From an uncultured virus (IMG/VR IMGVR_UViG_3300009159_000038) (taxonomy: Duplodnaviria > Heunggongvirae > Uroviricota > Caudoviricetes), in the IMG/VR virus record IMGVR_UViG_3300009159_000038, positions 1 to 64,000 of that record: DNA of 64,000 bases. One strand, 5' to 3'. The notes under the pieces were generated by a model. That model saw only the letters and a program-made list of their open reading frames with translations, was not told the DNA's origin and did no database searches. The translations under genes were made by a program, and so were the position numbers. Below, in pieces: positions 1-64,000 of the stretch (positions are counted from its first letter, which is position 1; the number at the start of each line of letters is the position of its first letter).

Positions 1-696
1 ACCTTGAAAACCAGTAGCACCTTGAAAACCTAATCCACTTGGACCTTGAATACCTTGAAGACCAGTAGTTCCAATTGTACCTTGATATCCTTGAAAACCT
101 AATCCACTTGGACCTTGAATACCTTGAAGACCAGTAGTTCCAATTGTACCTTGATATCCTTGAGCGCCTAATCCACTCGGACCTTGAATACCCTGAGCAC
201 CAGTAGTTCCAGAAGCTCCAGCACCTTGATATCCTTGAAAACCTAATCCACTCGGACCTTGAATACCTTGAATACCAGTAGTTCCGGAAGGTCCGGCAAT
301 ACCATCTGGACCTTGACGTCCTTGTCGACCTTGATTACCAGTTAAACCGATAGGTCCTTGTAAACCTTGAAGTCCAGTACCTACAGAACCTTGATATCCT
401 TGATCTCCTTTAGCTCCTTGAACACCAGATCCTTGATTACCTTGATAACCCTGATCACCTTTAGCACCTTGATAACCTTGATAACCCTGAGATCCTTTAG
501 CTCCTTGTACACCTTGATAACCTTGAGATCCTATACCTGGACCTTGTACCCCTTGAAATCCAGTAGCTCCTTGAAAACCTAATCCACTTGGACCTTGCGA
601 TCCAGTTAAGCCTTCCGAACCAGTCGAACCTTGAAATCCTTGAAATCCAAGTTCAACAAGTAATCCATTTTGTGGGGATCTTGTACCTATTGCCAT
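1..696 (-). CDS. Collagen-like (G-X-Q) fibre protein, runs off the window start
   Basis: ATG at 696-694; reads MAIGTRSPQNGLLVELGFQGFQGSTG... then G-x-Q triplets to base 1; absent from the ORF track because it has no stop in the window. Confidence 0.9.
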   Translation of the reverse strand, partial: MAIGTRSPQNGLLVELGFQGFQGSTGSEGLTGSQGPSGLGFQGATGFQGVQGPGIGSQGYQGVQGAKGSQGYQGYQGAKGDQGYQGNQGSGVQGAKGDQGYQGSVGTGLQGLQGPIGLTGNQGRQGRQGPDGIAGPSGTTGIQGIQGPSGLGFQGYQGAGASGTTGAQGIQGPSGLGAQGYQGTIGTTGLQGIQGPSGLGFQGYQGTIGTTGLQGIQGPSGLGFQGATGFQG

Positions 697-3106: not shown

Positions 3107-3109
3107 AAA

Positions 3110-3176
3110 TGTTAATAACTTTCCGAAAATAAATGTCAAAAAAGTTTTTTATTCCACAAAAAAGTATTATATTTGT
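3110..3176 (+). promoter_or_regulatory. Putative early promoter, copy 2
   Basis: TGTTAATAACTT at 3110, TATATTTG at 3168-3175; near-identical to 21494-21560. Confidence 0.75.
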
Positions 3177-3196
3177 ATATACAAAATAATCAAATA

Positions 3197-5103: not shown

Positions 5104-5445
5104 ATGAACAAGCTACCTACATATCAAGAGTTCTTAAATGAATCATTAGTTATCCTTTCTTTGAAAGGTATAATGAAGAATGAATTTATGAACAATATAG
5201 AACTTAAGCAAGAGTTCGAAACCGCTAGAAGATTATTCTTCGACAATGGTTCATGTTTATTCGATCACATTGAAGGCGATCGATTTACGCTAAGAACGCA
5301 TTCTACATTCGAAACTTCGGATATGGATGCACTCATTACAAAGATCAACGACGAAATTGAAAGGTTTTCTTTCAAGAGAGTCGGTCCGGCTAAAAAGAAT
5401 ATCATTAAAGAAAATCTTTGGTCTCTTAAAGCCAAACTTAATTGA
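5104..5445 (+). CDS. Putative internal head protein with capsid-targeting-like leader
   Basis: N-terminus MNKLPTYQEFLNES resembles T4 IP leader MKTYQEFIAE; AATATATA upstream. Confidence 0.6.
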   Translation: MNKLPTYQEFLNESLVILSLKGIMKNEFMNNIELKQEFETARRLFFDNGSCLFDHIEGDRFTLRTHSTFETSDMDALITKINDEIERFSFKRVGPAKKNIIKENLWSLKAKLN

Positions 5446-12558: not shown

Positions 12559-13110
12559 ATGAATAAACATATACCTTCCTTCAATTCTTTCATAAATGAA
12601 GGAAAAGAAATTCCTATTGAAGTGACTAAAGGTCAAGCTGCCTATTATAAAGGTCTTCCTAAATCTACTGCTCAAAAGAAGAAATCTCAAATCACCGCAC
12701 AAGCAGAGAAACCTTCAGATGATCCTTCAGCATATAAAGCTTTACCTGGAGATAAAAAAGCTCAATCTAAAGGAATAGTTAAAACTTCATCTCATGTGAA
12801 AAAATACAAAGAGATGTTTGGTGAATCTGTTATTAATGAAAAAGAAGAGGAACTTAAAAAAGGACCTATCGAAAACCCAGATATTGAAAAAGCTTTAAAG
12901 AATAAGGTAGAAGAAACCGGAGTAGATTTAGATATACTTCGAGTAGTTATGCGAAGAGGAATGGCTGCTTGGAAAGCTGGTCATCGTCCAGGAGCTACTC
13001 AAGAACAATGGGGTTATGCAAGAATTGCTTCTTTTGTTACTAAAGGACCTACTTACAAATCAACTGACTCAGATATGGCTAAAATCGCAAGAGATAGAGG
13101 TCAATTATAA
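12559..13110 (+). CDS. DUF5824-like protein with capsid-targeting-like leader
   Basis: MNKHIPSFNSFINE leader; RRGMAAWKAGHRPGATQEQWGYARIASF. Confidence 0.65.
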   Translation: MNKHIPSFNSFINEGKEIPIEVTKGQAAYYKGLPKSTAQKKKSQITAQAEKPSDDPSAYKALPGDKKAQSKGIVKTSSHVKKYKEMFGESVINEKEEELKKGPIENPDIEKALKNKVEETGVDLDILRVVMRRGMAAWKAGHRPGATQEQWGYARIASFVTKGPTYKSTDSDMAKIARDRGQL

Positions 13111-13683: not shown

Positions 13684-14190
13684 ATGAAACATATTAAAAC
13701 ATTTGAAATCTTCGTTAATGAAGCAGTTAAATTCAATCCAAGAAATCTAGATCAAGGAACTTTCTTTGATTTTATCGATAGTATGGATGCAGAAACTATT
13801 GAAGATTATGGAGTTGAAATGGATAACATGACTAAAGGTTATGAAGCCGTTGCTAAAGAATTAGGTGGTAATTTAAAAAACGTTAGCTTTGGTGATTCAG
13901 AGAATAATGATTATGAATTTTTTAAATTCTTAATGAATGTTTCTTTAGGAAGCATGGCATTTGATAAAGGAGTTAAACTTCCTGAAGTAAAATCTTTAAA
14001 AACTTTTAATATTCCATCAGGTTGGAGAGACGGTGATAATCAAGCTACATTGGTAGAAATTCCAGGAGTAGCGAATTACGTTACTTGGTTAGATGGTGAT
14101 GATTTTTCTAATTTTGATTATTGTGCTTATAAATCTTCGGATCTTCCCAAGATTGCAAAATGGGCTCAAGAGAATTACGTAGAATCTTAA
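13684..14190 (+). CDS. Putative internal head protein
   Basis: MKHIKTFEIFVNEA leader. Confidence 0.6.
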   Translation: MKHIKTFEIFVNEAVKFNPRNLDQGTFFDFIDSMDAETIEDYGVEMDNMTKGYEAVAKELGGNLKNVSFGDSENNDYEFFKFLMNVSLGSMAFDKGVKLPEVKSLKTFNIPSGWRDGDNQATLVEIPGVANYVTWLDGDDFSNFDYCAYKSSDLPKIAKWAQENYVES

Positions 14191-18672: not shown

Positions 18673-19935
18673 ATGGCTACTGGACCATACACCAATTCGT
18701 TAAACTTTCGTTTAAACCGAACAAAACCTCTAAATTATACAGATTTAGATAATAACTTTAGATATCCAAATCAATGGGGACTCGATCGATCATATCTGTC
18801 AGGTATGATGGTTGTTTCGTATGATTTTGGTTATACTGCATCAGATTCAATATCTATGTATATTGCTTCTAGCGATCATACGAGTACTATGCTTAATGCT
18901 CCAGGATTAACTGGTGCTCAATGGACTGCAATTGCAGTTCCTAGTGCTGGATATGTTGGTCCAACCGGACCTCAAGGTGGAATTGGTGCTCAAGGTGCTG
19001 GATCTCAAGGATCTCAAGGTCCTCAAGGTTATCAAGGTGTTACCGGTTTTCAAGGAGTTCAAGGATCTCAAGGAGCTACTGGTATTCAAGGACATACTGG
19101 ATATCAAGGGGTTCAAGGTACTAAAGGAGATCAAGGTTTTAAAGGAGATCAAGGATTCCAAGGAGCTCAAGGTTATACTGGTAATAAAGGAGATCAAGGT
19201 TTTCAAGGTATTCAAGGAACTGTAGGTAATCAAGGATTCCAAGGAGCTCAAGGAGAACAAGGAGATCAAGGTAACTCTATTACTGGATCTCAAGGAGATC
19301 AAGGATTTCAGGGAGATCAAGGATTTCAGGGAGATCAAGGTACTAAAGGAGATCAAGGTATTCAAGGTATTACTGGGCCAGGAGTTGGGTCTCAAGGACC
19401 TACTGGTTTCCAAGGTATTCAAGGAGCTAAAGGAGATCAAGGATTTCAAGGTATTCAAGGATCTAAAGGAGATCAAGGATTTACTGGATTTCAGGGTAAT
19501 CAAGGACCTACCGGTTTCCAAGGTAATCGAGGTAATCAAGGATATCAAGGAGATCAAGGTTATCAGGGATATCAAGGTTATCAGGGATATCAAGGAGATC
19601 AAGGATTTCAAGGATTCGATACAGCATATGCTGCTATAAATAATCAAGTTTCTAGTTACACATTAGTGTTAGCCGATGCTGGTAAATTAGTGGAAATAGA
19701 TAATGCCGCATCTTCAATTCTTACGGTTCCTTTGAATGCATCGGTTGCTTTTCCTGTAGGTACTCAAATTATTATTGCTAGACTTGGTACTGGTGAGGTG
19801 AGCGTTGTTGGTACTGGTGGTGTAACGGTTGTTAGTGCAAATTCATTTACATTCTTAAATAATCGATACTCATCTGCATCTCTCATAAAAAGAGGTACCA
19901 ATGCATGGTATCTATTTGGAGATCTTAAACCTTAA
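18673..19935 (+). CDS. Collagen-like tail fibre/decoration protein
   Basis: N-terminal LNYTDLDNNF, long G-X-Q array (about 18958-19615), C-terminal YTLVLADAGKLV..FPVGTQI..WYLFGDL. Confidence 0.85.
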   Translation: MATGPYTNSLNFRLNRTKPLNYTDLDNNFRYPNQWGLDRSYLSGMMVVSYDFGYTASDSISMYIASSDHTSTMLNAPGLTGAQWTAIAVPSAGYVGPTGPQGGIGAQGAGSQGSQGPQGYQGVTGFQGVQGSQGATGIQGHTGYQGVQGTKGDQGFKGDQGFQGAQGYTGNKGDQGFQGIQGTVGNQGFQGAQGEQGDQGNSITGSQGDQGFQGDQGFQGDQGTKGDQGIQGITGPGVGSQGPTGFQGIQGAKGDQGFQGIQGSKGDQGFTGFQGNQGPTGFQGNRGNQGYQGDQGYQGYQGYQGYQGDQGFQGFDTAYAAINNQVSSYTLVLADAGKLVEIDNAASSILTVPLNASVAFPVGTQIIIARLGTGEVSVVGTGGVTVVSANSFTFLNNRYSSASLIKRGTNAWYLFGDLKP

Positions 19936-20679: not shown

Positions 20680-20687
20680 CATACAAC

Positions 20688-20719
20688 AAAAGCTCTAGAA
20701 ATTAATCTAGAGCTTTTTT
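20688..20719. terminator. Bidirectional intrinsic terminator
   Basis: AAAAGCTCTAGA-AATTAA-TCTAGAGCTTTT between a convergent CDS and the tmRNA. Confidence 0.8.
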
Positions 20720-20733
20720 CATTTAAGTGGAAG

Positions 20734-21169
20734 TGGAGCTGGAGGGAATCGAACCCTCGTCTTGTTCAGCTAATACTAAGAATTCATTTACAGGCTTAGT
20801 TTGGTTTATGACACCAACAAACTTTTGTGCATTTCGTTTTTCTTGTTGACTTAATGCTCGGTCAAGTTTACTCTTCGGTATAAGCCGAATTTCACAGAAC
20901 AATTAACAGCGATCTTAATGGGTTACTGATTGTTCTCGGATGGTACTACTAACCCTTTTTCCCGGTGTGCACATTTTTTTAATATCAGTAAGTGCGACTG
21001 ATTGGTTAGGCAGCGATAGCTACTTCACCACCAACGAATGCCATAGCATCTTCGAAGGTAAAAGTTGACGTATTGTCAGTTATTGTTTTGATAGGTAATT
21101 TAAGTGTTTCCATCTAACACTGCCTGCATTCAAAGAACTACGACTGCCAATCGATGCCTGGTCAGCCCC
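20734..21169 (-). ncRNA. ssrA: tmRNA (transfer-messenger RNA)
   Basis: 5' GGGGCTG pairs with 3' CAGCTCC-A (G3.U70); T-arm GAGGG-TTCGATT-CCCTC; ATAACT then tag ORF 21077-21006 DNTSTFTFEDAMAFVGGEVAIAA*. Confidence 0.93.
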
Positions 21170-21209
21170 ATATTAATTTGTGTATGTATTATATGTATAC
21201 TACAGAAAC

Positions 21210-21238
21210 AAAAAAAGGAGAGTACGAATACTCTCCTT
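21210..21238 (-). terminator. Intrinsic terminator of the lipoprotein gene
   Basis: AAGGAGAGTA-TTCG-TACTCTCCTT plus T-run on the minus strand. Confidence 0.85.
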
Positions 21239-21260
21239 AATGCGATTGATGTTGGTACAA

Positions 21261-21428
21261 TTACTTAGTAGTAGCAGTATCAACACAAGTGGCTTTGCAA
21301 GTGGTATCAACCGAAGTTGAATCTGTTGCAACCATCGTAGAATCAGTTGCTGTTGCAGTTGATTCAGGAGCATTTCCACAAGAAGCTAAAGCTACCGTTG
21401 CGATTAATGCGAAAATTACGTTTTTCAT
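21261..21428 (-). CDS. 55-aa Bacteroidota-type lipoprotein
   Basis: MKNVIFALIATVALAS-CGNAPESTATATDSTMVATDSTSVDTTCKATCVDTATTK; lipobox LASC; too short for the ORF track. Confidence 0.85.
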   Translation of the reverse strand: MKNVIFALIATVALASCGNAPESTATATDSTMVATDSTSVDTTCKATCVDTATTK

Positions 21429-21493
21429 AAATTAATTATTTTAAATTGTTATAAGATAGTTATATGTAAGCCTAGGTTCGTTAGTTTTGGTAT

Positions 21494-21560
21494 TGTTAAC
21501 AAGTTTCCTAAAATAAATGTTAAAATATTTTTTTATTCCACAAAAAAGTATTATATTTGT
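21494..21560 (+). promoter_or_regulatory. Putative early promoter, copy 3
   Basis: TGTTAACAAGTT at 21494, TATATTTG at 21552-21559; last 32 nt identical to 3145-3176. Confidence 0.75.
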
Positions 21561-21582
21561 TATAACCAATTAAATAAATTAT

Positions 21583-24623: not shown

Positions 24624-26369
24624 ATGGCAAATGGTAGTACCCCACAGAATATAAATGCAACCGAGTATTATGGTATTGTTGGTGCACCGGAAAATGGTGG
24701 AAAAGCAATAATCGGTTCTTTCTATGATGGAACCTATGATTGGCCAGCACCAAAACCGGTAAAGGCTCAAGGACAAGAAATTACATCTTCTCTTCAAGGC
24801 AGAAAAGCTCCAAGTTCAATATTCAATAGATATGCCATATTTTTCTATAATAATCGAGTTGGATCGGTTGGTACTACAACTGATCAATATCTAGATGATC
24901 CCAAATGGTATACTGATGCAGAAAAGAAGAGAGTTCAAAATCCTACGGCTGCACAAATTATTAAATGGTCAAGAGAAAGTAAACAGGCTAATCAAGCCGA
25001 TTTTGCATGGGAAGATTTCCTTTGGTGTAAGAATTATGGAGTAGTTCCAAATAATTATATGATTACTTTACGTCGTTTTAAGATGCCAGTTAATGATGAT
25101 CTTTTAGATGCTGGAAAAAATCCTGCTCCGGATGTTGGTCGTATGATTGCTTGGGTTGATGGAGAAGCTAATACATGGGAAGCAGTTGGTTTGAAATGGA
25201 CACAAAAATTAAAATGGAAGGATCTTGAATCGAAAGTTAGTGAGGTAACCTCTTCAAGTCAAGCTTCCGGTAATGAAGGTGCCGCTCTTTCGAAAAAGAT
25301 GCCAATCCTCGGAGCTGTCGTACAACAAGGGTCATATTTGTCTCAAAAGGACAATGCACAATCATCTTTAGCCGGAAATAACAAAGGTCAATCATTTGAC
25401 CCATATTCCGATCCATCTAAAATTTATGGAAATATTAATGTAATTGAAAAGATGATTATTAGAGATAGAGGTTTAGACTTTACTCAAGAGATGACTGTCA
25501 AATTTGAATTTGAATTGCGATCTATCGATGGAATAAATCCTAGAATTGCAATGTTAGATTTACTATCAAATGTAATGGTATGCACTTATAATAAAGGTCA
25601 ATGGTGGGGTGGAGAAATTCGTTTTACTGGAGGAGCAAATTCTCGTAACATTAAACCTTTAGGAAATCCTGCGCTATTAGCTTCTGGTGATTATGGTGGA
25701 TATTTAAAATCATTAACCTCTGGAATATCTGAAAGAATTGGTTCATTAACCGGTGGTGCTGGACTTTCTCTTGAAGGTATTGGTAATGCCGCTAAAAATC
25801 TAGGAGGTAATTTGATGGCTAAAATTGCCGGAGGTGCTTTAGATGATATGGGTAGACCGGATCCATCAGCAATGAACGGTATTCAATCTCTTCTAAGCGG
25901 AGCTGATACTGGAGAATGGCATCTTACAGTTGGAAATCCAATGAATCCTATTCTTATGGTAGGTAATCTTGTATTAGATAAAACTGATGTTAAAATACAT
26001 GGTGCATTGGGATTAGATGATTTTCCTACGAAACTAGAAGTTGTATGTACATTAAAACCTGCAAGATCTAGAGATTTAAACGATATTATGGGAATGTTTC
26101 ATAGAGGAGGTAGAACTTATTTAACAAATCCTCCAGCTGCACAAAAATTTGGAGATGGATCGAAACAATTAAATCCAGGAGTTACTCCAAAACATCCTAA
26201 GAAAAATAAAAAATCGCCAAAAGTTGGAAGTGGACAAGATGCACAGAAATTTTATTATGCCGATGCATCATTCTTTTCAAATGATGCTAGAGCTAAGGCT
26301 CGATTCCCTAATCAAACGGATGAAGCTGCAAAAGCAATCCTTCAACAAGTGGCAGGAATGCTAGATTAA
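24624..26369 (+). CDS. Putative baseplate/tail-tube initiator-like structural protein
   Basis: First gene of the structural module; C-terminal WHLTVGNPMNPI..DDFPTKLEVVCTLKP. Confidence 0.45.
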   Translation: MANGSTPQNINATEYYGIVGAPENGGKAIIGSFYDGTYDWPAPKPVKAQGQEITSSLQGRKAPSSIFNRYAIFFYNNRVGSVGTTTDQYLDDPKWYTDAEKKRVQNPTAAQIIKWSRESKQANQADFAWEDFLWCKNYGVVPNNYMITLRRFKMPVNDDLLDAGKNPAPDVGRMIAWVDGEANTWEAVGLKWTQKLKWKDLESKVSEVTSSSQASGNEGAALSKKMPILGAVVQQGSYLSQKDNAQSSLAGNNKGQSFDPYSDPSKIYGNINVIEKMIIRDRGLDFTQEMTVKFEFELRSIDGINPRIAMLDLLSNVMVCTYNKGQWWGGEIRFTGGANSRNIKPLGNPALLASGDYGGYLKSLTSGISERIGSLTGGAGLSLEGIGNAAKNLGGNLMAKIAGGALDDMGRPDPSAMNGIQSLLSGADTGEWHLTVGNPMNPILMVGNLVLDKTDVKIHGALGLDDFPTKLEVVCTLKPARSRDLNDIMGMFHRGGRTYLTNPPAAQKFGDGSKQLNPGVTPKHPKKNKKSPKVGSGQDAQKFYYADASFFSNDARAKARFPNQTDEAAKAILQQVAGMLD

Positions 26370-55812: not shown

Positions 55813-58365
55813 ATGGCTAACATTTCAATAAAAGAACTTTTTCCAGCGGATTCGCTAATAAATGCCGTTGAAAAAATAAATTTTAACTTCGATCAAGTAA
55901 TTCTTGGTGGCGGTGGCCCTCAAGGAGATACTGGTGTTACTGGTCCTGCTGGTGGACAAGGTCCAGTAGGAGATCGAGGAAATTATTGGTTTGCTGGAAC
56001 TACTTATGGAGGAGTTACTGGTGATGCCTATGGTAATCCATTAGAATTAGGTGATGGATTTGTAAGTAGTGGAGGAACTGTCTACATATACTCTTTTACT
56101 GGAGGTTCAACCGGATGGTACAATACCGGAATTAATCTTGTTGGTCCTAGTGGTCCTCAAGGAGTTACTGGTGGATCATTCGAATGGCAATATTTTAGAG
56201 GAGCTACCGACATTGGTGTTAACTCATGGATTGCTGCTACTGCATATGGTGCAACTACGACGGTTAGTTCAAATCGAGATATTATTTCGTATGTTGGTGC
56301 CGAGAAGAATATTGTATTTATGGGATCTACTGGTTGGGCAATTGACCAACTTTCGGATTTTGGTTACTTCCCGACTGGATCTAATTTACAAAAACAGCTA
56401 CCTACATTAACAGTAATTCAAAGATATATTGATGGAGATAGTGTTAGTGGAATTGCATTTGGTGCAGTAGGTTTAACTTCTGGTACTGCTGGAACACTTC
56501 CTACTTCAGGAGATCTTAATGAACCGGTATCTGCTCTAGATTTTACATATTATGGATTTGAAACTACAACAACGGATCCTTGGTATAACGGAACTCTTAT
56601 ACAAAGAGCGGTTATTCACTCACCTAAAATGCCTATGGCAATTAAGATTGGTGGAACCACTCCTCTAGAAACACCGGCTAACCTTTATATAGAATCTCAA
56701 TTCTTAAAATTTAACGATTATCTAAGTGAAAAATCTTGGTTAACCGGAAACGATTCAACCGGATCTACTCCATTAGGTTTTCATCATATATTTTCAAAAT
56801 CCGTTGGATTAAATCCTCTTTCAACCGGAGTTGGTAAACAAGGTGCTGTGGTACTTCAAGGAATTGATGGAACTTATTCGATAGGATCTTATCAACATCG
56901 ATTGGGAAATACCATTATTGGTACTACTGCCGGTTTAGCTGGTAATATTGTTGCTGGATTAATTATATCAAGAGGAAATACCGGTGGAATTAGTGCATCA
57001 AATAATTACGATTCTCATATATCATTACATGCCGATAACACATCAAATGCAGTTGCAAAAATTATTGCTTCAACTGATGCGAATGGAATTCCTAGAACTC
57101 AATTTGCTTCGAGTCGTTTAGGTATTATTGGTGCTACTCCAGGAGCTACTGGATCTGCCGGATTTTTAAAAGGCGCTTGGAATTCAGAAAATTATACGCC
57201 TAAGGTTCCCTTTCACATCATTCAAGATAGTGGAAATCTAAATACAATTAATGGATCAGGTGCTGGTATATCCAGTTTAACTCTTCCTGCAAATTTATCT
57301 GGTTTAAGAGTTTTATCAATGACTGATGTTATTGATGCTCGAGGTGGTGGTCTTATTCATGGACTTACTCCAGCTTATAATATTACATCTTTATCAGGTC
57401 CAATGGGAGCTACTGTAATTTATTCATGGGATGATATTGTTCTAAGAACATTTGCTAGAGGAGCAACAAATATGTCTCCTAACATTTGGGTTAATCCTGG
57501 AGGAAGTGCAAATGGTGGATCTTTAATAGTAGGTTTAAGTTTTCCAACTACTTCGTCTAATCTTTTAGGAGGAACCGGTCAATATATTAGATCTAAACTT
57601 GCCATTGGTGGATCAATAACTGTAGGAGAGATTGCATGGCATAGAGATTATCAACCACCAACAAATGGTATTAGACTTCAAGGTTCTATATACCAAGGGG
57701 TAACCGCAAATAATCCAGGAGCTTCTGCATCATTTGATGGTTATGGATATTATGGAGGAACCGGAGGAATTGGATCTGAATCATTTTTAGCGATTGGTGA
57801 TTCTACATTTACTGCTAGAGCATTAGGTGGATATAAATATTACCAATCACAAGTTGGAAATGGAGGAATTCCATCAATATTTGCTGGAGCATTCCAAGGA
57901 CCTATAATTATTGAAGGATCTAATAAAACAACGGATGGAGCAAATGGTCAATTACAAGATATTCGTATAGTTAACTCAAGTATGTTTAATCATGCGGCTG
58001 CCTTAATTGGAGGAAAAGTTATTATTGGAGGATCTGCATATTCTCAATCATGGTACACAAAAGACCCGTATTATACCGGTGGTTTAGTTGCTAATGTAGT
58101 TGTAGTTGGAGATCCAATAACCGGAGCTACTGTATCAGGACATGGTTTAGGTTATCCTGAAACTGCTGCTCTATCAGTTAACTCAACAACTAAAGGTTTT
58201 GCACCACCGAGAATGAGCCAGACACAAAGAGTTGCAATGGGATCCGTCGCCCAAGGTCTTATGGTTTATCAAGTAACTGGAACTCCCGGTGCTCCTGGTC
58301 CTACTGGAGAAGGTTTATATATGTACACTAGTGCTGGATGGACTGGTCCAATGAGATTCTCGTAA
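55813..58365 (+). CDS. Tail fibre-like protein
   Basis: EKINFNFDQ N-terminus, short collagen stretch, C-terminal LSVNSTTKGFAPPRMSQTQR..GLMVYQ. Confidence 0.7.
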   Translation: MANISIKELFPADSLINAVEKINFNFDQVILGGGGPQGDTGVTGPAGGQGPVGDRGNYWFAGTTYGGVTGDAYGNPLELGDGFVSSGGTVYIYSFTGGSTGWYNTGINLVGPSGPQGVTGGSFEWQYFRGATDIGVNSWIAATAYGATTTVSSNRDIISYVGAEKNIVFMGSTGWAIDQLSDFGYFPTGSNLQKQLPTLTVIQRYIDGDSVSGIAFGAVGLTSGTAGTLPTSGDLNEPVSALDFTYYGFETTTTDPWYNGTLIQRAVIHSPKMPMAIKIGGTTPLETPANLYIESQFLKFNDYLSEKSWLTGNDSTGSTPLGFHHIFSKSVGLNPLSTGVGKQGAVVLQGIDGTYSIGSYQHRLGNTIIGTTAGLAGNIVAGLIISRGNTGGISASNNYDSHISLHADNTSNAVAKIIASTDANGIPRTQFASSRLGIIGATPGATGSAGFLKGAWNSENYTPKVPFHIIQDSGNLNTINGSGAGISSLTLPANLSGLRVLSMTDVIDARGGGLIHGLTPAYNITSLSGPMGATVIYSWDDIVLRTFARGATNMSPNIWVNPGGSANGGSLIVGLSFPTTSSNLLGGTGQYIRSKLAIGGSITVGEIAWHRDYQPPTNGIRLQGSIYQGVTANNPGASASFDGYGYYGGTGGIGSESFLAIGDSTFTARALGGYKYYQSQVGNGGIPSIFAGAFQGPIIIEGSNKTTDGANGQLQDIRIVNSSMFNHAAALIGGKVIIGGSAYSQSWYTKDPYYTGGLVANVVVVGDPITGATVSGHGLGYPETAALSVNSTTKGFAPPRMSQTQRVAMGSVAQGLMVYQVTGTPGAPGPTGEGLYMYTSAGWTGPMRFS

Positions 58366-58382
58366 TAAAAAATTAAAAAATT

Positions 58383-59162
58383 ATGAAATTTGACTATAAA
58401 AAATTGAAGCTTAATCAAATCTTAATGATTGGATTTGTGATTGTGCTGCTTCTATTTCTTAGACAATGTTCAGTTACGGATGGTCTTAAAGATGAATTGA
58501 TGGTAGCCGGACAAAATGAAAAAGCACTTAACGACTCAGTTAGAGAAACAACTAATAAGCTAGGCGAACAAGTTTTTCTAAAGAACACCTTCATTGCAGA
58601 CGGTAAGAAACTTAAAGAACTTAATGCGGAACTTTATAGAGAAGTTAAAAATCTAAAGGGTGACGTTAAGATGATTACTACCGCCAATGCCGGAATCAAA
58701 TCGGATCCAATTTATCTGACAAATACCATCACTAAATATGCCGATGGAATTGTAGATATTGGTTGGAAATATGATTCCATCTTTTCGAAAGGTAATTACA
58801 GAAAGTTGGCAGGGATATCTAAGATTCAATACGATTCAGCGAATGTTCTAGATAAAGGAACCACTATAACACAAGATGAAATCGGTATCTCGGTGACCAC
58901 AGGTTTGGTTAAACTTGATGGATCTTATCAAATATTTGTAAAATCTAATTATCCTGGAATGACAATTTCTGATATACAAGGATCTATTCTTGACAAGAAC
59001 ATGATTCAATCTGATGAATCTTCTTGGGTATTTGGACCTTATGTAGGTGTTGGTGTTGGTGTTGATCCCATGAATAAAACTATTGGACCTAATGTATCTT
59101 TTGGATTGGGAATTACATATAACTTGAATAAGAAGATTAAAAGGCTCTTTAAGCCCTTCTAA
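58383..59162 (+). CDS. Membrane-anchored protein, possible spanin-like lysis protein
   Basis: N-terminal TM helix, coiled coil, C-terminal amphipathic beta segment GPYVGVGVG..GLGITYNL. Confidence 0.45.
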   Translation: MKFDYKKLKLNQILMIGFVIVLLLFLRQCSVTDGLKDELMVAGQNEKALNDSVRETTNKLGEQVFLKNTFIADGKKLKELNAELYREVKNLKGDVKMITTANAGIKSDPIYLTNTITKYADGIVDIGWKYDSIFSKGNYRKLAGISKIQYDSANVLDKGTTITQDEIGISVTTGLVKLDGSYQIFVKSNYPGMTISDIQGSILDKNMIQSDESSWVFGPYVGVGVGVDPMNKTIGPNVSFGLGITYNLNKKIKRLFKPF

Positions 59163-59175
59163 ATAATAAACGTAA

Positions 59176-61770
59176 ATGGCTACATCTTCAAAATTTATTT
59201 TACTTAATGATGCGGTATTGATGGAATACATCTATGCGGATCAGGCTCAAATAAATGTACCAGGGAACGAATTCCGTATCCCTACTACAACTGCACCGTT
59301 ATGGAAGACTCAAAATCTACATACCGGAGAATATCAAATTCTTAATGATGATGCTTGTGGAATAATTCAGGATGGTCTTCCAGTAGGAACGGCTAATATC
59401 CGAAATCATTCATATGCTCAAATCTCAAGATCTAAAGTTGCAGAATTAGATATTGATCGTATTGTATTCTATAATGATTTCGATACAGATCTTACTTCGT
59501 CTGCTAGTTTACCTATCAGTTTCAACACAGGAAAATCTCCGGTATATGATACTGTCAAATTTCATCTTGTACAAGGATTTAATTTTCAAGGTAATGAAGC
59601 TTTTGCGGCATCAATAAAAGCCAAGAAGAGAAATGGAACTAATCTAATTTTAGCCAATATACTTTATTCTAAATCAGATGCATGGGAAACTCTTAATCCA
59701 TCATCATTCTTATTTGGTGGTAGAGTTTATGATTCATATGTAGAAGTAAGAGTTCTTTCTCTTTACAATCTAGTATATGATTATTGGTATACTACACTTA
59801 ATGGAGATTCAGTTGCTGAAAAAATTACGGATGGATCCGGTTTTGAACCTTCTCAAAATATACAAATAGATTTTAGATTTTTGAATAATCCAACTTTTGT
59901 TGATGGACAAAATTATCTAACTTTTTACGAAGGAGTTCAAGCAGAAATACCTACTAAAGATCAATTCGAATCTATTAGTGCTTATATTGCAGAATCTAAT
60001 GATGGTGATTATATAGAATTTTATGGAAAATTCAATGGTGATATTATCGAGAATTTTATTCTAGATATTAATGCATCTGGTTATGATTACATGTTACTTC
60101 ACGATTTAGTCGTTTCTGAATATGTTTACGATCAAACTAGTGCAACTTATGCGTGGGTACAAACTGCCGATGTTCAACTTTCACAAGTTGACAATTATGA
60201 TTTACCCAATACATTTCGTCCAGTAATTAAGAACACGAATGCAATATCTTTTAAAATAGATTATGTACTTCGACTATATAATAGATCAGATAATTCACAA
60301 ATTTGGAAAGCCTCATCTATGATTTCTAGTAAGGTTAATAAATATGGAAGAGTTCTTAAGGCTATTAATTTAGGTTCAAATCCTATTCAACTTAAAGTAT
60401 ACAATCAATTAGTATCTAAAGAAATAAATTTACAAAGGGCTTTAGATCCAGTCATTAGCAATGTAAGATATTTGACATCGTTCACCGACAATAACGCTAT
60501 TTCTATCGCATGGGATAATATTACTACTGGTGGAACTGCCACTCAAGGAACTATTCAAAATGTGTTACAAAACGGAACTAATCTGAGAATATATCCTCAA
60601 AGTTTAGGAAGAATAATGGTATCTAAAGGAACCTCGTATGTACGTTTTACTTTATATCAGACTAAAAATAATGCTAATACAATTCTAGATCTTTCTGGTC
60701 TAGGTGATGTTATTTTAGAATTTGGATCTAATACTGATGAATCTATTACATTTGATGAATTTCCAACAACGGCAGCCGATAAAGCAAGAGGTCAAGTTGT
60801 ATTTCGTTTAAATGAAACTCAATCAACTAATATTCTAGGTTTAAAAAATCGAGAATTTAATCTTTACATACGAAATGAAAAGGGAACTACTGCCGGTTTA
60901 ACCGGAGTAACTTCTATGGAAATAACCAATACAGCAGCAGCTAATGCTGCATCCTCTAGAGGAGAAAAACAACAACTCTATACTGGTAAATTCTATTCAT
61001 CTAGCGAATATGCTAAATTAAAAGAAATTGATAAAATTGAAGATCTTCTAATAACCATTAACGAAAAAAATGGTCAAATCAGTAGACAAGAAACGATTAT
61101 CGTTGAAAGAAATTCTACCGTTGTTAACAAAGATAATCAAATTTCATCTCTTAATTCTCAATTAACTAAATCTAATTCAGATTTATCTCAGGCTTTAACA
61201 AATAACGCTGCATTAGTAGCAGCAGATAATATAGAAGACGCTGAATTCAATGCAACAATTGCTTCATTATCAAAACAATTATCTACAATTCAATCCGTAG
61301 TAGGACAACAAACTACATTTATACAAAATATAAGTAATGAAAAGACTACATTGACTAACGAGAATAATCGTTTGCTAGCTTTAATAAGTACTCTTAATGC
61401 AACAATCTCTGCTTTACGAGCAGTTCCAGTTCAACAACCGATTCAGACTTTTACTCCTATAGAAGTTAGAAACTTTGGAACTTCTAGTAGTATTTCTGCG
61501 AATACCAATTTGATAAGCTCTCCTACTGCAATAACTAGAAATGAAGTAGCAGTATTACCTCCTTCTTCTTCAGTTATATCTAGTCCTGTTCCTAGTTTTG
61601 CAGTTACTCCAGTATCAGCTCCTAGAGTGGTAACGGTTTCTCCGAATGTAATTGCCGCTCCATCGGTAACAATTTCAGTTCCTGCACCTTTCCAAACTGC
61701 AATTAAAGGAACTAATGTTAAAGGAACTAATGTTAAAGGAACTTCATCTAAAGGAACAAATCAACAATAA
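59176..61770 (+). CDS. Structural protein with C-terminal coiled coil and P/S/T/V-rich tail
   Basis: 864-aa ORF ending KGTNVKGTNVKGTSSKGTN. Confidence 0.55.
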   Translation: MATSSKFILLNDAVLMEYIYADQAQINVPGNEFRIPTTTAPLWKTQNLHTGEYQILNDDACGIIQDGLPVGTANIRNHSYAQISRSKVAELDIDRIVFYNDFDTDLTSSASLPISFNTGKSPVYDTVKFHLVQGFNFQGNEAFAASIKAKKRNGTNLILANILYSKSDAWETLNPSSFLFGGRVYDSYVEVRVLSLYNLVYDYWYTTLNGDSVAEKITDGSGFEPSQNIQIDFRFLNNPTFVDGQNYLTFYEGVQAEIPTKDQFESISAYIAESNDGDYIEFYGKFNGDIIENFILDINASGYDYMLLHDLVVSEYVYDQTSATYAWVQTADVQLSQVDNYDLPNTFRPVIKNTNAISFKIDYVLRLYNRSDNSQIWKASSMISSKVNKYGRVLKAINLGSNPIQLKVYNQLVSKEINLQRALDPVISNVRYLTSFTDNNAISIAWDNITTGGTATQGTIQNVLQNGTNLRIYPQSLGRIMVSKGTSYVRFTLYQTKNNANTILDLSGLGDVILEFGSNTDESITFDEFPTTAADKARGQVVFRLNETQSTNILGLKNREFNLYIRNEKGTTAGLTGVTSMEITNTAAANAASSRGEKQQLYTGKFYSSSEYAKLKEIDKIEDLLITINEKNGQISRQETIIVERNSTVVNKDNQISSLNSQLTKSNSDLSQALTNNAALVAADNIEDAEFNATIASLSKQLSTIQSVVGQQTTFIQNISNEKTTLTNENNRLLALISTLNATISALRAVPVQQPIQTFTPIEVRNFGTSSSISANTNLISSPTAITRNEVAVLPPSSSVISSPVPSFAVTPVSAPRVVTVSPNVIAAPSVTISVPAPFQTAIKGTNVKGTNVKGTSSKGTNQQ

Positions 61771-62337
61771 ATGATACTTCAAAATAGAAATGATCTTTTT
61801 AAAGTTGAGTTACCTAGAATATTCGTACCTCAAGAAATAAAAGATCGATACGCACCATACCTCTTTAGGATGCCAACTCCAGTAACGGATGTGGCCGATA
61901 TTGTGAATTATTCTATTCAATCAATAACTATTCCTAATTTTAATTTTCAACCAATTGAACAGGTTAAGCCTGGTTATTATGCAGAAGCTAAAGGTACTAC
62001 AAGAAGATTTCGTCAAGCTCTATCACCAGAGATGTTAATTGATAGAAACTTCACCGTCACATTTCAGCTGTTAGACGGAAATGTTAATTATTGGATATTA
62101 TTAGAAACATTCTTTCATTATTATAGCTTTGATAATCGTAATCCATATACATTTGATGTTCCTATTGGTATATTTGATGCTGAAGGAAATAAGATGTACT
62201 CATCAATATTCAAAGATTGTTTGTTTACCGGAATGAATCAATTCACACTTTCTTATTCAGAATTAACTCCTGAATTTAGAACCTTCGAAGCTACATTTGC
62301 ATTTAATGAGATAAAATTAGAATTTGAAACTCAATAA
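61771..62337 (+). CDS. Tail tube/tail terminator-like protein (T4 gp19/gp3 fold)
   Basis: IQSITIP, FTVTFQL...NYW, FKDC, TFEATFAFN. Confidence 0.55.
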   Translation: MILQNRNDLFKVELPRIFVPQEIKDRYAPYLFRMPTPVTDVADIVNYSIQSITIPNFNFQPIEQVKPGYYAEAKGTTRRFRQALSPEMLIDRNFTVTFQLLDGNVNYWILLETFFHYYSFDNRNPYTFDVPIGIFDAEGNKMYSSIFKDCLFTGMNQFTLSYSELTPEFRTFEATFAFNEIKLEFETQ

Positions 62338-62338
62338 A

Positions 62339-62977
62339 ATGAAATTTTACAAATATCATGAATTTCTAAATGAGGCATCTATTGCATCGGTGATTGATAG
62401 AATAGGAAATGAAGAGAATATTCAAATTGAAAATATGGATGATTATGTTAATCATTTCATAAATATAGGCGCAAAAAGGATTGCCGGCGGTTCATCTGCT
62501 GAAATACTCGAATACCAAGGTGGAGTTATCAAGATATATGCTCCTATCAATGATCCAGGAATGACTAGATATTTAGCATTTTGTTTATCTAATAAAACGA
62601 ATTCATATACTCCTAAAATAGAAAAAATTCTAAAGGTTTGGGCCAATGAAGAAAGATGGATATTTGCAGTATTCATGGAAAATCTAGAAAAACCAAGTGG
62701 AGATTTTACCAATGAATTAAACATGTATTTAGAAACTCAATTAAAGGGATATCGTTTCGGTAATAATAAAGAGGATACCAACTTTTTTGAAGGTTTAAAA
62801 TCTATTATAATTAAATATTCAAAAGATTCAGATAAAAAATCTTTAAACGATATAATTGCATTCCTTAATGGATCAATTGACAAATATCGATATCAGGTAG
62901 ATTTTGGTCCTCAGAATTGGATGATGCGAAGAGGTCAATTAGTTTTAATTGATCCATTTTGGCCAAGTATGGAATAG
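62339..62977 (+). CDS. T7 gp0.7-like Ser/Thr protein kinase with capsid-targeting-like leader
   Basis: IAGGSSA loop, VIK, DPG..YLAFC, FME, DFGPQNWM, LIDP; leader KYHEFLNEA. Confidence 0.7.
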   Translation: MKFYKYHEFLNEASIASVIDRIGNEENIQIENMDDYVNHFINIGAKRIAGGSSAEILEYQGGVIKIYAPINDPGMTRYLAFCLSNKTNSYTPKIEKILKVWANEERWIFAVFMENLEKPSGDFTNELNMYLETQLKGYRFGNNKEDTNFFEGLKSIIIKYSKDSDKKSLNDIIAFLNGSIDKYRYQVDFGPQNWMMRRGQLVLIDPFWPSME

Positions 62978-63014
62978 GATTGAATATATAAATTAATATA
63001 AAAACAACAAACTA

Positions 63015-63320
63015 ATGAATATCATTCCAACATTTGATGGATTTATTAACGAAGGAAAGATTTCCATCGGAAAAATGAATTTTTTTGTACGAGTTTTTAA
63101 CGATGCAAAAGGACTATACGTACAATTTATACCGGATGGCAAGACTTTAGATAAATTTTCTAAGAATGACATGGTAGAAAATATAAAAGATAAACTAGAT
63201 TCAGCAATGCCTCAATTTGCAAGTGCTCTTTGGTTCGCAATTGACAATCAAGCCACAGGAGTAATTTTCAGATTAGACCCATATAAATTAGAAGAAATAA
63301 TTACAAAAGCTATTAAATAA
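63015..63320 (+). CDS. Putative internal head protein
   Basis: MNIIPTFDGFINEG leader; AATATATA upstream. Confidence 0.6.
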   Translation: MNIIPTFDGFINEGKISIGKMNFFVRVFNDAKGLYVQFIPDGKTLDKFSKNDMVENIKDKLDSAMPQFASALWFAIDNQATGVIFRLDPYKLEEIITKAIK

Positions 63321-63685
63321 TGAAAACATTCAAAGAATATCTTATTGAAAGTAATACTTTCTCTGAAGAAGAAATCAAAGCACTTAATGAAAATCTTAAG
63401 TCTGAATTAACTGAAGCTGAAGAAGCTAAAATCGATAAAGCTATCAAAGAATTTTGTAGTCAATATCTTGATAAAAACAAGAATATAAAAGAATTTAATG
63501 AAGAGCTTACAAATGAAGGTTTTCTAGGATCTATCCTAGGAGGTCTTACCGGTTTTGCTCTAGGATCTTCGATCGGTAAAATTATTGCAAATGTACTAGG
63601 TATTGAGAGAGGCGTAATTTACGATTTACTAACAAGTAGACTTGTTGGAGCTGCATTAGGTGCTGCATTAGGAAAACGTGTATGA
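63320..63685 (+). CDS. Putative internal/ejected protein with glycine zipper
   Basis: MKTFKEYLIES leader; GSILGGLTGFALGSSIG and GAALGAALG. Confidence 0.6.
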   Translation: MKTFKEYLIESNTFSEEEIKALNENLKSELTEAEEAKIDKAIKEFCSQYLDKNKNIKEFNEELTNEGFLGSILGGLTGFALGSSIGKIIANVLGIERGVIYDLLTSRLVGAALGAALGKRV

Positions 63686-64000
63686 TAATAGGAATTGATT
63701 TCTCAATTAACAGTACAGCCGTATCTATAAACGAAGGAGGTAACCTCACTCTATTTTCATTCGTTCCAAATTTTCAATCAGGTAAAGCCGCATTCAGAAC
63801 ACATGATGCAATACGAGAAATTGTCACGGTTGTTAGCTATAATAAAGAACCTAATACTAAAGATAGTTTAGAAGATCAAAGAATTAAGATTCGTAATGCT
63901 AACGAATTATCCGATCAAATAATATCTCACATTAGACCTTATTTAGAAGAAGCAGAATTTATCAATATAGAAGGTTTCTCATTTGGATCTAAAGGAAATT
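63682..64000 (+). CDS. RuvC-like Holliday junction resolvase (partial)
   Basis: ATGA overlap; MIIGIDFSINSTAV ... INIEGFSFGSKG. Confidence 0.7.
   Translation, partial: MIIGIDFSINSTAVSINEGGNLTLFSFVPNFQSGKAAFRTHDAIREIVTVVSYNKEPNTKDSLEDQRIKIRNANELSDQIISHIRPYLEEAEFINIEGFSFGSKGN

Follow-up and report, generated by a model that had tools for sequence, protein, structure and literature searches.

A minimal T7K-family kinase with a T4-type capsid-targeting-like leader in an uncultured T4-type freshwater phage, and its possible delivery with the phage DNA

The gene at 62339..62977 on the plus strand of the uncultured-virus record IMGVR_UViG_3300009159_000038 encodes a 212-residue protein that is very probably a minimal kinase of the T7 gp0.7 (T7K) family, with an N-lobe, a hinge, a catalytic loop and a magnesium-binding aspartate, and with its end just after an Asp-Pro-Phe (DPF) motif. 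The protein begins with a 12-residue leader resembling the capsid-targeting sequence of bacteriophage T4, and its gene directly follows a block of baseplate and fibre genes in an uncultured freshwater phage that PHROG and Pfam scans show to be of the T4 type. We propose that the kinase may be made late, loaded into the head through its leader, trimmed there and injected into the next host, a chain of events that we consider plausible while stopping just short of calling it probable. The window, meaning the whole stretch analysed here, is the first 64 kb (64,000 nucleotides) of a single 133,957-base contig of 33% G+C, in which a simple greedy script called 145 open reading frames (ORFs); features beyond the window are given in contig coordinates.

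The kinase ORF runs from an ATG at 62339 to a TAA at 62975-62977, the stop codon being included in the range given above. The ORF listing extends back to a TTG at 62324, and we take the ATG as the start because 20 of 20 aligned full-length homologues begin there. An earlier note on this DNA had proposed a T7 gp0.7-like protein kinase from a handful of short motifs, all of which are found in the ORF: VIK at residues 63-65, DPG at 72-74, YLAFC at 78-82, DFGPQNWM at 188-195 and LIDP at 203-206. The T7 strings it had cited for comparison are likewise present in gp0.7 of NC_001604, with VIKV at residue 91, DSG, YTAFC at 105, DMHSGNIM from 195 and ITDP at 211-214. The two proteins are collinear through the glycine-rich loop, VIK, D(S/P)G, Y(T/L)AFC, D-x4-N and a DP motif in place of DFG.

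These motifs can be assigned to the working parts of a kinase, all on the plus strand. Residues 49-56 (AGGSSAEI; 62483..62506) form the equivalent of the glycine-rich ATP loop, as judged from the family alignment and from a profile match to the corresponding loops of RAF and CK2. Lys65 of VIK (62531..62533) is the equivalent of the ATP-anchoring lysine and aligns with T7K Lys93 in both the family and the T7K alignments, while the catalytic loop Asp188...Asn193 (DFGPQN; 62900..62917) aligns with T7K Asp195...Asn200 (DMHSGN) in the 110-sequence alignment described below and by hhalign. Asp205-Pro-Phe (62951..62959) takes the place of Asp213-Pro-Val (DPV, residues 213-215) of T7K, which the accessible part of the T7K report describes as a stand-in for DFG (PMC13645617). 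Across the 110 sequences Gly51, Asp188 and Asp205 are invariant, and Lys65, Asn193, Glu114 and Pro206 are conserved in at least 90%. The protein ends five residues past DPF (seven past Asp205), which leaves it with neither an activation segment nor a C-lobe.

In sequence comparisons, homology to T7K is not significant pairwise and is significant at the level of the family. BLASTP of the window kinase against T7 gp0.7 gave an expect value (E) of 0.33, and a PHROG scan of the window kinase alone matched PHROG 15752, the gp0.7-type kinase group, at a weak E of 0.0038. No match was found by tblastn against 50,697 phage records, and PADLOC recognised no family in the window kinase or in the family members P0028 and P0036. 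A word-indexed search yielded 21 metagenomic relatives at E <=0.01 among 87 candidates, with 41-86% identity and with Pfam domains in 0 of the 21. When these near relatives were scanned singly, 17 of 21 matched PHROG 15752 (best E 4.5e-9) and one touched PHROG 2828, the group of T7K itself (E 0.095). One homologue of 45% identity, P0020, is named 'hemerythrin' by one source, a name to which the alignment gives no support.

The near-family alignment (A1) comprises the window kinase and 20 relatives, the fragment P0017 being left out. We widened the family because the profile of these 21 rows reached T7 gp0.7 with a probability of only 3% (E 0.014 over 69 columns). Against 1.84 billion cluster representatives, the A1 profile found 812 proteins at E <=1e-3 and 84 at E <=1e-10, mostly of 160-250 residues and matched from about A1 position 20-45 onwards. 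The resulting alignment (A2) has 110 rows, namely the window kinase, 10 near relatives and 99 of the 150 representatives listed; long proteins of several domains, fragments and rows with a match in two pieces were removed. Its profile aligned with residues 53-222 of T7 gp0.7 at 98.8% probability (E 6e-17, 159 columns, about 14% identity). In a search with the A2 profile, 60 of the 60 rows shown were protein kinases, and its glycine-loop and VxK region aligned with the glycine-loop and VAIK region of RAF and CK2 at E of about 0.007-0.05. A tblastn search with the A2 member P0036 led to annotated kinases of T7-like and Munch-like jumbo phages in 30 records. The profile match, the fold and the conserved catalytic residues together bear out the identification made in the earlier note.

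The fold of the A1 family agrees with this assignment. AlphaFold2 gave a model with a mean predicted local distance difference test score (pLDDT) of 84.5 and a predicted template modelling score of 0.79, in which residues 1-20 scored low (51-65). In the model the chain ends with a strand at 200-203 and nine further residues, directly after the DP motif, as expected for a kinase fold truncated after the DFG equivalent. A Foldseek search of the PDB returned 63 matches at E <=1e-3, and among the rows listed almost all were protein kinases, including CK2, PKA, Mps1, MK2 and PknB, alongside fructosamine-3-kinase. The larger size of the targets keeps the template modelling (TM) scores of these matches low (0.3-0.4). 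The best match in BFVD had an E of 6.6e-9 and a TM score of 0.68, and many of the rows there carried the name of a phage 'protein kinase'; kinase domains also dominated the best 50 rows of a wide VIA-align search that is independent of Foldseek (Z 5.5-7.7). The matches span about residues 20-210 of the model and the first 150-200 residues of the kinase domains. Single Z scores below 8 are middling, and the structural case rests on how uniformly the rows point to kinases and on the evidence from sequence.

The leader, MKFYKYHEFLNE, occupies residues 1-12 (62339..62374, plus strand), ends in L-N-E and contains the EFLNE string that had been singled out in the earlier note. It is close to the experimentally defined capsid-targeting sequence of T4: in NC_000866 the internal proteins (IPs) IPII and IPIII begin with MKTYQEFIAE and IPI with MKTFKEF, and leaders in the source phage include …YHEFLNE (the kinase), MKTFKEYLIE and …YQEFLNE. 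The common pattern is an aromatic residue, any residue, an acidic residue, Phe or Tyr, an aliphatic residue, any residue and Glu, so that the leader closes on [LIV]-x-Glu. A strict version of it, [FY]xx[FY][LIV]xE starting within residues 1-13, occurs in 15 of the 145 ORFs against 0.2 expected, with a maximum of 2 in 200 shuffles; counted by eye, and with looser variants included, leader ORFs number 20. We considered the leader proteins as a single family of paralogues and rejected this: without their first 18 residues, 1 of the 190 pairs among the 20 is similar at E <=0.01. Since these proteins are otherwise unlike each other, we regard the tag as portable.

Among the kinases, the leader is present in all 22 full-length near relatives, with Glu12 invariant (21 of 21 in the alignment), and distant family members do not have it. 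As the wider family matches the near-family profile only past the leader region, the leader is an add-on to the kinase domain. A different tag, M[KR]xxE[LIF], starts 43 of 147 distant family members (P0023-P0169), as in MKLNEL, MKVxELF and MRAxEFI; it starts none of the 145 ORFs of the source phage.

The machinery that such a leader would call for is encoded on the contig. A prohead protease (Peptidase_S77, PF03420) is recognised at E 6.3e-13 and 49 bits, against a cut-off of 27, and a gp23-type capsid protein at E 4.1e-36 (PF07068); PHROG and Pfam scans add a gp20-type portal, a gp4-type head closure protein and a gp2-type DNA end protector. In T4, the available portion of PMC5694885 reports that internal head proteins enter the core by means of the capsid-targeting sequence, and that gp21 trims the propeptides of the IPs and of Alt after Glu, with cuts in Alt at ITE-6 and LTE-619. 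By analogy, the kinase leader may be cleaved after Glu12. The 633-residue protease protein (contig 101702-103603) has its protease domain in the first ~190 residues, followed by an acidic helical region of ~440 residues rich in aliphatic-x-Glu. Away from N-termini the strict leader pattern occurs 9 times against 4.7 expected, and 3 of these occurrences lie in the C-terminal part of this protein. The protein looks like a fusion of protease and scaffold of the gp21-gp22 kind, and no separate scaffold gene is present between the portal and capsid genes. The start of the capsid protein also holds …LINE-S and …IIE-S. A complex prediction for the 633-residue protein with residues 1-45 of the kinase scored 0.00, which speaks neither for nor against binding.

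The position of the gene, together with the distribution of a short upstream motif, makes it likely that the kinase is produced late. The ORF immediately upstream (61771..62337, plus strand) ends 1 nt before the kinase ATG and closes the plus-strand block, starting at 24624, that holds the baseplate and fibre genes. The statement in the earlier note that the kinase follows a tail gene therefore stands as far as this block is concerned. The tail-tube identity of the ORF itself is weak (phrog_45, E 2.2e-4), BLASTP against the true tail tube protein of the phage was not significant, and the slot is not conserved in relatives. A scan of 58000-64000 found neither a gap nor a plus-strand terminator between the two genes, and in the same interval sigma-70-like promoters were at chance level (30 versus 30.9 in shuffles), in a scan that does not cover Bacteroidota-type or phage-specific promoters. 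The phage encodes a gp55-like late sigma factor, as recognised by the PHROG and Pfam scans.

Three classes of upstream motif were found in the genome, and none of them precedes the kinase gene. The 8-mer ATATATAA has 24 plus-strand copies, 16 of which are found no more than 45 nt ahead of a start codon, at distances of 3-27 nt. Among the genes so preceded are those for the tail sheath and the prohead protease, the one that opens the structural block, one located upstream of a gene for a virion structural protein, and 8 leader genes; the 8-mer stands before 8 of the 20 leader ORFs and 8 of the 125 others (Fisher p 2e-4). Judged by the genes that carry it, ATATATAA may be a late promoter. One copy, found by the 8-mer scan at 62984..62991 on the plus strand, lies just past the kinase stop codon and 23 nt before the next leader gene. 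The late-promoter word of T4, TATAAATA, has 12 plus-strand sites without any pattern relative to gene starts and was dropped in favour of ATATATAA. CATATAA lies before replication genes. The third class is a long conserved early-type element, …TTTTTTTATTCCACAAAA…TATATTTGT…, in large intergenic gaps, with a TTTG…TAnnTTTG-like pattern that we take to be the Bacteroidota promoter type. Examples of the upstream motif classes are at 3107-3196 and 20680-21582 of the window and at contig 111105-111346, 112965-113159, 116677-116774 and 119001-119099.

Sequences of related phages in RNA libraries bear on the locus as well. Five metatranscriptome runs contain 5-9% of the words sampled, and the four that were mapped gave only contigs of relatives, 90-99% alike, which leave parts of the window uncovered and cannot show timing, strand or level. 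The runs that yielded these contigs are labelled as lake water or freshwater sediment metagenomes. A 301-base contig of one relative runs across from the upstream gene into the kinase gene. Contigs of close relatives from two of the runs (X2 and X3) match the window up to 62337 and again from 62995, with unlike sequence between. Because they diverge exactly at these two points, we regard the kinase as a cassette in a variable slot, with the upstream stop codon at one edge and the next copy of ATATATAA at the other. A different setting is seen in the contig L009, which carries a 44%-identical homologue: there the kinase lies five genes past the capsid gene, between a tagged ATP-grasp gene, which directly precedes it, and the clamp loader, and both the kinase and the ATP-grasp protein have another flavour of leader (…YTINE and …YTLITE). 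The sharing of a flavour fits a phage-specific address, in this single case.

It is possible to assemble these features into a pathway. The kinase would be made late in infection, as the last cistron of the baseplate and fibre operon, and its 12-residue leader would act as a T4 capsid-targeting sequence that brings it to the scaffolding core of the prohead, where a protease of the gp21 type would cut after Glu12. The mature kinase of ~23 kDa would be kept in the head and ejected together with the DNA, so that host proteins could be phosphorylated ahead of all phage transcription. If T7K is a guide, defence proteins and proteins that handle nucleic acids would be the likely targets; the defence and translation proteins suggested in the earlier note would likewise be an extrapolation from T7. 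Packaging is plausible because the phage has a T4-type head with an S77 protease, a T4-like portable leader and an operon that looks late.

Several results weigh against this reading and have to be set beside its rivals. Pfam finds no family in the window kinase at E <=0.1, and with the C-lobe absent from the model the protein falls outside the canonical Pkinase family. The near-family profile came no closer to T7 gp0.7 than the low probability given above and had no meaningful match among PDB chains (best E 0.15, to MxiA). No canonical alpha-C Glu can be assigned in the window kinase, and its DPFW lacks the Ser that comes directly after DPV in T7K and that is reported to be conserved in all variants; the Val of DPV is reported to be less conserved outside Autographiviridae (both PMC13645617, in part). 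The lack of any protein-kinase family in Pfam would also suit a small-molecule kinase, or an ATP-binding or inactive kinase-fold protein with an internal or structural place in the head. So would the matches of 21 of the 110 family members to YrbL-PhoP_reg, a kinase-like family of unknown substrate, and of one to APH, the presence of fructosamine-3-kinase among the fold matches and the loss from the model of the whole substrate-binding C-lobe. We nevertheless regard this explanation as improbable: the sole characterised relative, T7K, is a bona fide protein kinase of great promiscuity that shares the truncation and the DP motif, every catalytic residue is conserved, and the top fold matches are protein kinases. 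The window kinase is probably catalytically active.

The evidence on timing and delivery admits more than one interpretation. It is quite possible that a T7K-type kinase is made late and stays unpackaged, acting late in infection in the producing cell, for example by phosphorylating proteins of the host or the phage so as to hold defences or lysis timing in check or to exclude superinfecting phages, while the leader serves otherwise, for example as a translation-start context, as a recombination handle for cassette swapping or as a helix for a cytoplasmic partner. Kinase identity and late position also fit this account; the gene is a swappable cassette, with the breaks at 62337 and 62995 and the homologue placed elsewhere in L009, and a late, unpackaged role has been proposed for another late phage kinase, a HipA-like one, in the available text of PMC8008677. 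Twenty tagged ORFs are many for head cargo, and to have so large a set among 145 ORFs, several of them among early-type genes, counts against delivery in general. What speaks for a head destination is the closeness of the leader to a capsid-targeting sequence defined by experiment, the match of its end to the Glu motif of a protease encoded by the phage and the recurrence of its pattern in a scaffold-like protein; activity only minutes before lysis would also be of less obvious benefit. Late synthesis, which both accounts share, is itself open to objection. The late-promoter role of ATATATAA is drawn from gene content and its spacing to the ATG is loose, the RNA-library contigs may hold DNA, and the position after a tail gene is a trait of the source genome rather than of the kinase family. 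T7K is itself early, and in the cultured jumbo phage Munch the homologue has for neighbours small genes of the kind found in early regions. A host-takeover kinase of early or middle timing, comparable to T7 gp0.7, would be read from a promoter within the upstream gene that escaped recognition, and its leader would have no relevance to its role; this reading would agree with these two cases, with the early action reported for T7K and its tested homologues (PMC13645617, in part) and with the limits of a promoter scan blind to Bacteroidota-type and phage-specific sites. We think it unlikely, as none of the three motif classes stands before the gene, its ATG follows so closely on the stop codon of a baseplate-block gene, and sigma-70-like sites are no commoner than in shuffled sequence.

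The components of the proposed pathway have precedents: T7K and its jumbo-phage and prophage homologues, the capsid-targeting sequence of T4, injected enzymes such as Alt and the truncated kinases of polyvalent proteins are all already known. In a literature search of limited coverage, we found no paper that joins a capsid-targeting sequence with a protein kinase. The window kinase and T7K (PHROG 2828, with PHROG 15752 as its sister) share a homologous kinase domain with the same truncation past the DP motif, and both are phage-borne rather than cellular. Unlike T7K, the window kinase has no C-terminal shut-off and DNA-binding domain, has DPF for DPV with no Ser directly after it, has Gly in place of the His of DMH (DFG…N) and carries an N-terminal T4-type leader; it is encoded by a T4-like myovirus, within a tail operon that looks late, and not in the early region of a podovirus as T7K is. 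The T7K homologues of the jumbo phages Munch (Salmonella) and G17 (Escherichia) are likewise short and stand-alone, without a shut-off domain, as described in part of PMC13645617, and were reached by tblastn from P0036 at E 9e-10. The Munch gene differs in being placed among small hypothetical genes and not in a structural operon.

On the side of delivery, the closest parallel is the T4 cargo of IPI, IPII, IPIII and Alt, which also bear N-terminal leaders of 10-15 residues, of the same pattern, portable over unrelated proteins and served by a Peptidase_S77 protease. Alt provides a precedent for an injected host-modifying enzyme (PMC5694885, in part). The candidate cargo here differs in being a kinase, which is not known in T4, and in its extent, a handful of tagged proteins in T4 against about 15-20 tagged ORFs in this phage. 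A second parallel is Kinase-PolyVal (PF18762), a domain of the Ser/Thr/Tyr-kinase superfamily that likewise lacks its whole C-terminal subdomain and keeps its active-site residues (Iyer et al. 2017, PMC5512222). According to the available part of that study, it occurs in (pro)phages of Bacteroidetes, also in stand-alone versions, is proposed to modify host proteins as the T7 kinase does, and the truncated kinases in polyvalent proteins are thought to be delivered with the DNA. The window kinase has no match to PF18762 at E <=0.1, and 3 of the 110 family members match it weakly (best E 5.8e-4).

The kinase of T7 must first be transcribed and translated, whereas an injected version, if our proposal is right, would act from the first second of infection, like T4 Alt and IPI*. 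It would also add protein kinases to the classes of phage effector known to be injected, and the leader offers a simple experimental handle on packaging. Most proteins of host and phage are reported to be phosphorylated by T7K, which counters several defence systems and was recently shown to disarm many bacterial defences through this mass phosphorylation, and its published homologues comprise 190 viral and 32 bacterial proteins, again by the accessible part of PMC13645617. Our searches suggest a much larger family than these ~220, given the 812 cluster representatives at E <=1e-3, and one that reaches into T4-like phages of Bacteroidota-type hosts.

Some distant members of the family are elaborate. 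P0028 (1769 residues) combines three kinase-like stretches with a C-terminal Acb1 domain (E 2.8e-23) directed against the cyclic oligonucleotide-based antiphage signalling system, in what looks like a polyvalent-type counter-defence protein; this fusion links the kinase family to counter-defence. Tandem mini-kinase modules are found in P0025 (1021 residues) and P0027 (813 residues), with five profile-matched stretches each, and in P0037, with three. Most of the modules start at …LNEL.GYK junctions that repeat the N-terminal tag of the same protein. These arrays could be polyproteins cut at the tag, or they could be fused tandem genes.

Other leader ORFs of the source phage lie both beside the kinase and far from it, all those in the window being on the plus strand. 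Directly downstream are an ORF of 101 residues with the same kind of leader (…FDGFINE; 63015..63320), included in the motif count, and one of 121 residues whose leader MKTFKEYLIE is close to the start of T4 IPI and IPII (63320..63685). Among nucleotide-metabolism genes, the motif and 8-mer scans mark an ORF of 113 residues with the leader …YQEFLNE and its own copy of ATATATAA (5104..5445). Two more leader ORFs recognised by the motif are one of 183 residues with a DUF5824 domain in Pfam and ATATATAA upstream (12559..13110), and one of 168 residues (…FEIFVNE; 13684..14190). Outside the window, the same leader (…YFSDFVNE) begins a RimK-type ATP-grasp enzyme of 501 residues (contig 109141-110646; PF08443, E 2.1e-34), possibly a second packaged protein-modifying enzyme; the ATP-grasp protein encoded directly before the kinase in L009 is its homologue. 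It is tempting to speculate that some 15-20 leader-tagged enzymes, among them the T7K-type kinase and the RimK-type ligase, are carried in the head and injected as a protein-modification kit that disables defences before transcription. The tag would then be a general, phage-specific capsid address, and the related tags of P0025 and P0027 would mark polyproteins cut by the head protease; we offer this wider scheme tentatively and hold it to be doubtful as a whole.

The remainder of the contig agrees with a T4-type phage. The PHROG and Pfam scans recognise genes for the tail sheath, tube, baseplate hub and wedge, and for replication and recombination (UvsX, UvsY, a gp41-type helicase, the clamp loader, a gp46/47-type nuclease and a gp32-type single-stranded DNA-binding protein). 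The closest capsid proteins in the phage collection, at 32-54% identity, belong to uncultured huge phages, Prevotella Lak phages, Tenacibaculum phages pT24 and PTm1 and Sphingomonas phage PAU. The kinase gene is 100% identical in two larger IMG/VR contigs, L007 (207,040 bases) and L008 (254,393 bases), so that the 133,957-base record may be incomplete, or the larger contigs may be concatemers. Family-B DNA polymerase is split over two ORFs of 466 and 402 residues (contig 79565-80965 and 85023-86231), and the ~4 kb that separate the halves encode both subunits of ribonucleotide reductase. Collagen-like repeat proteins with strong matches to tail-fibre PHROGs are encoded at 1-696 (minus strand) and 18673-19935 (plus strand), the former at the start of the contig and opposite in direction to nearly all other genes.

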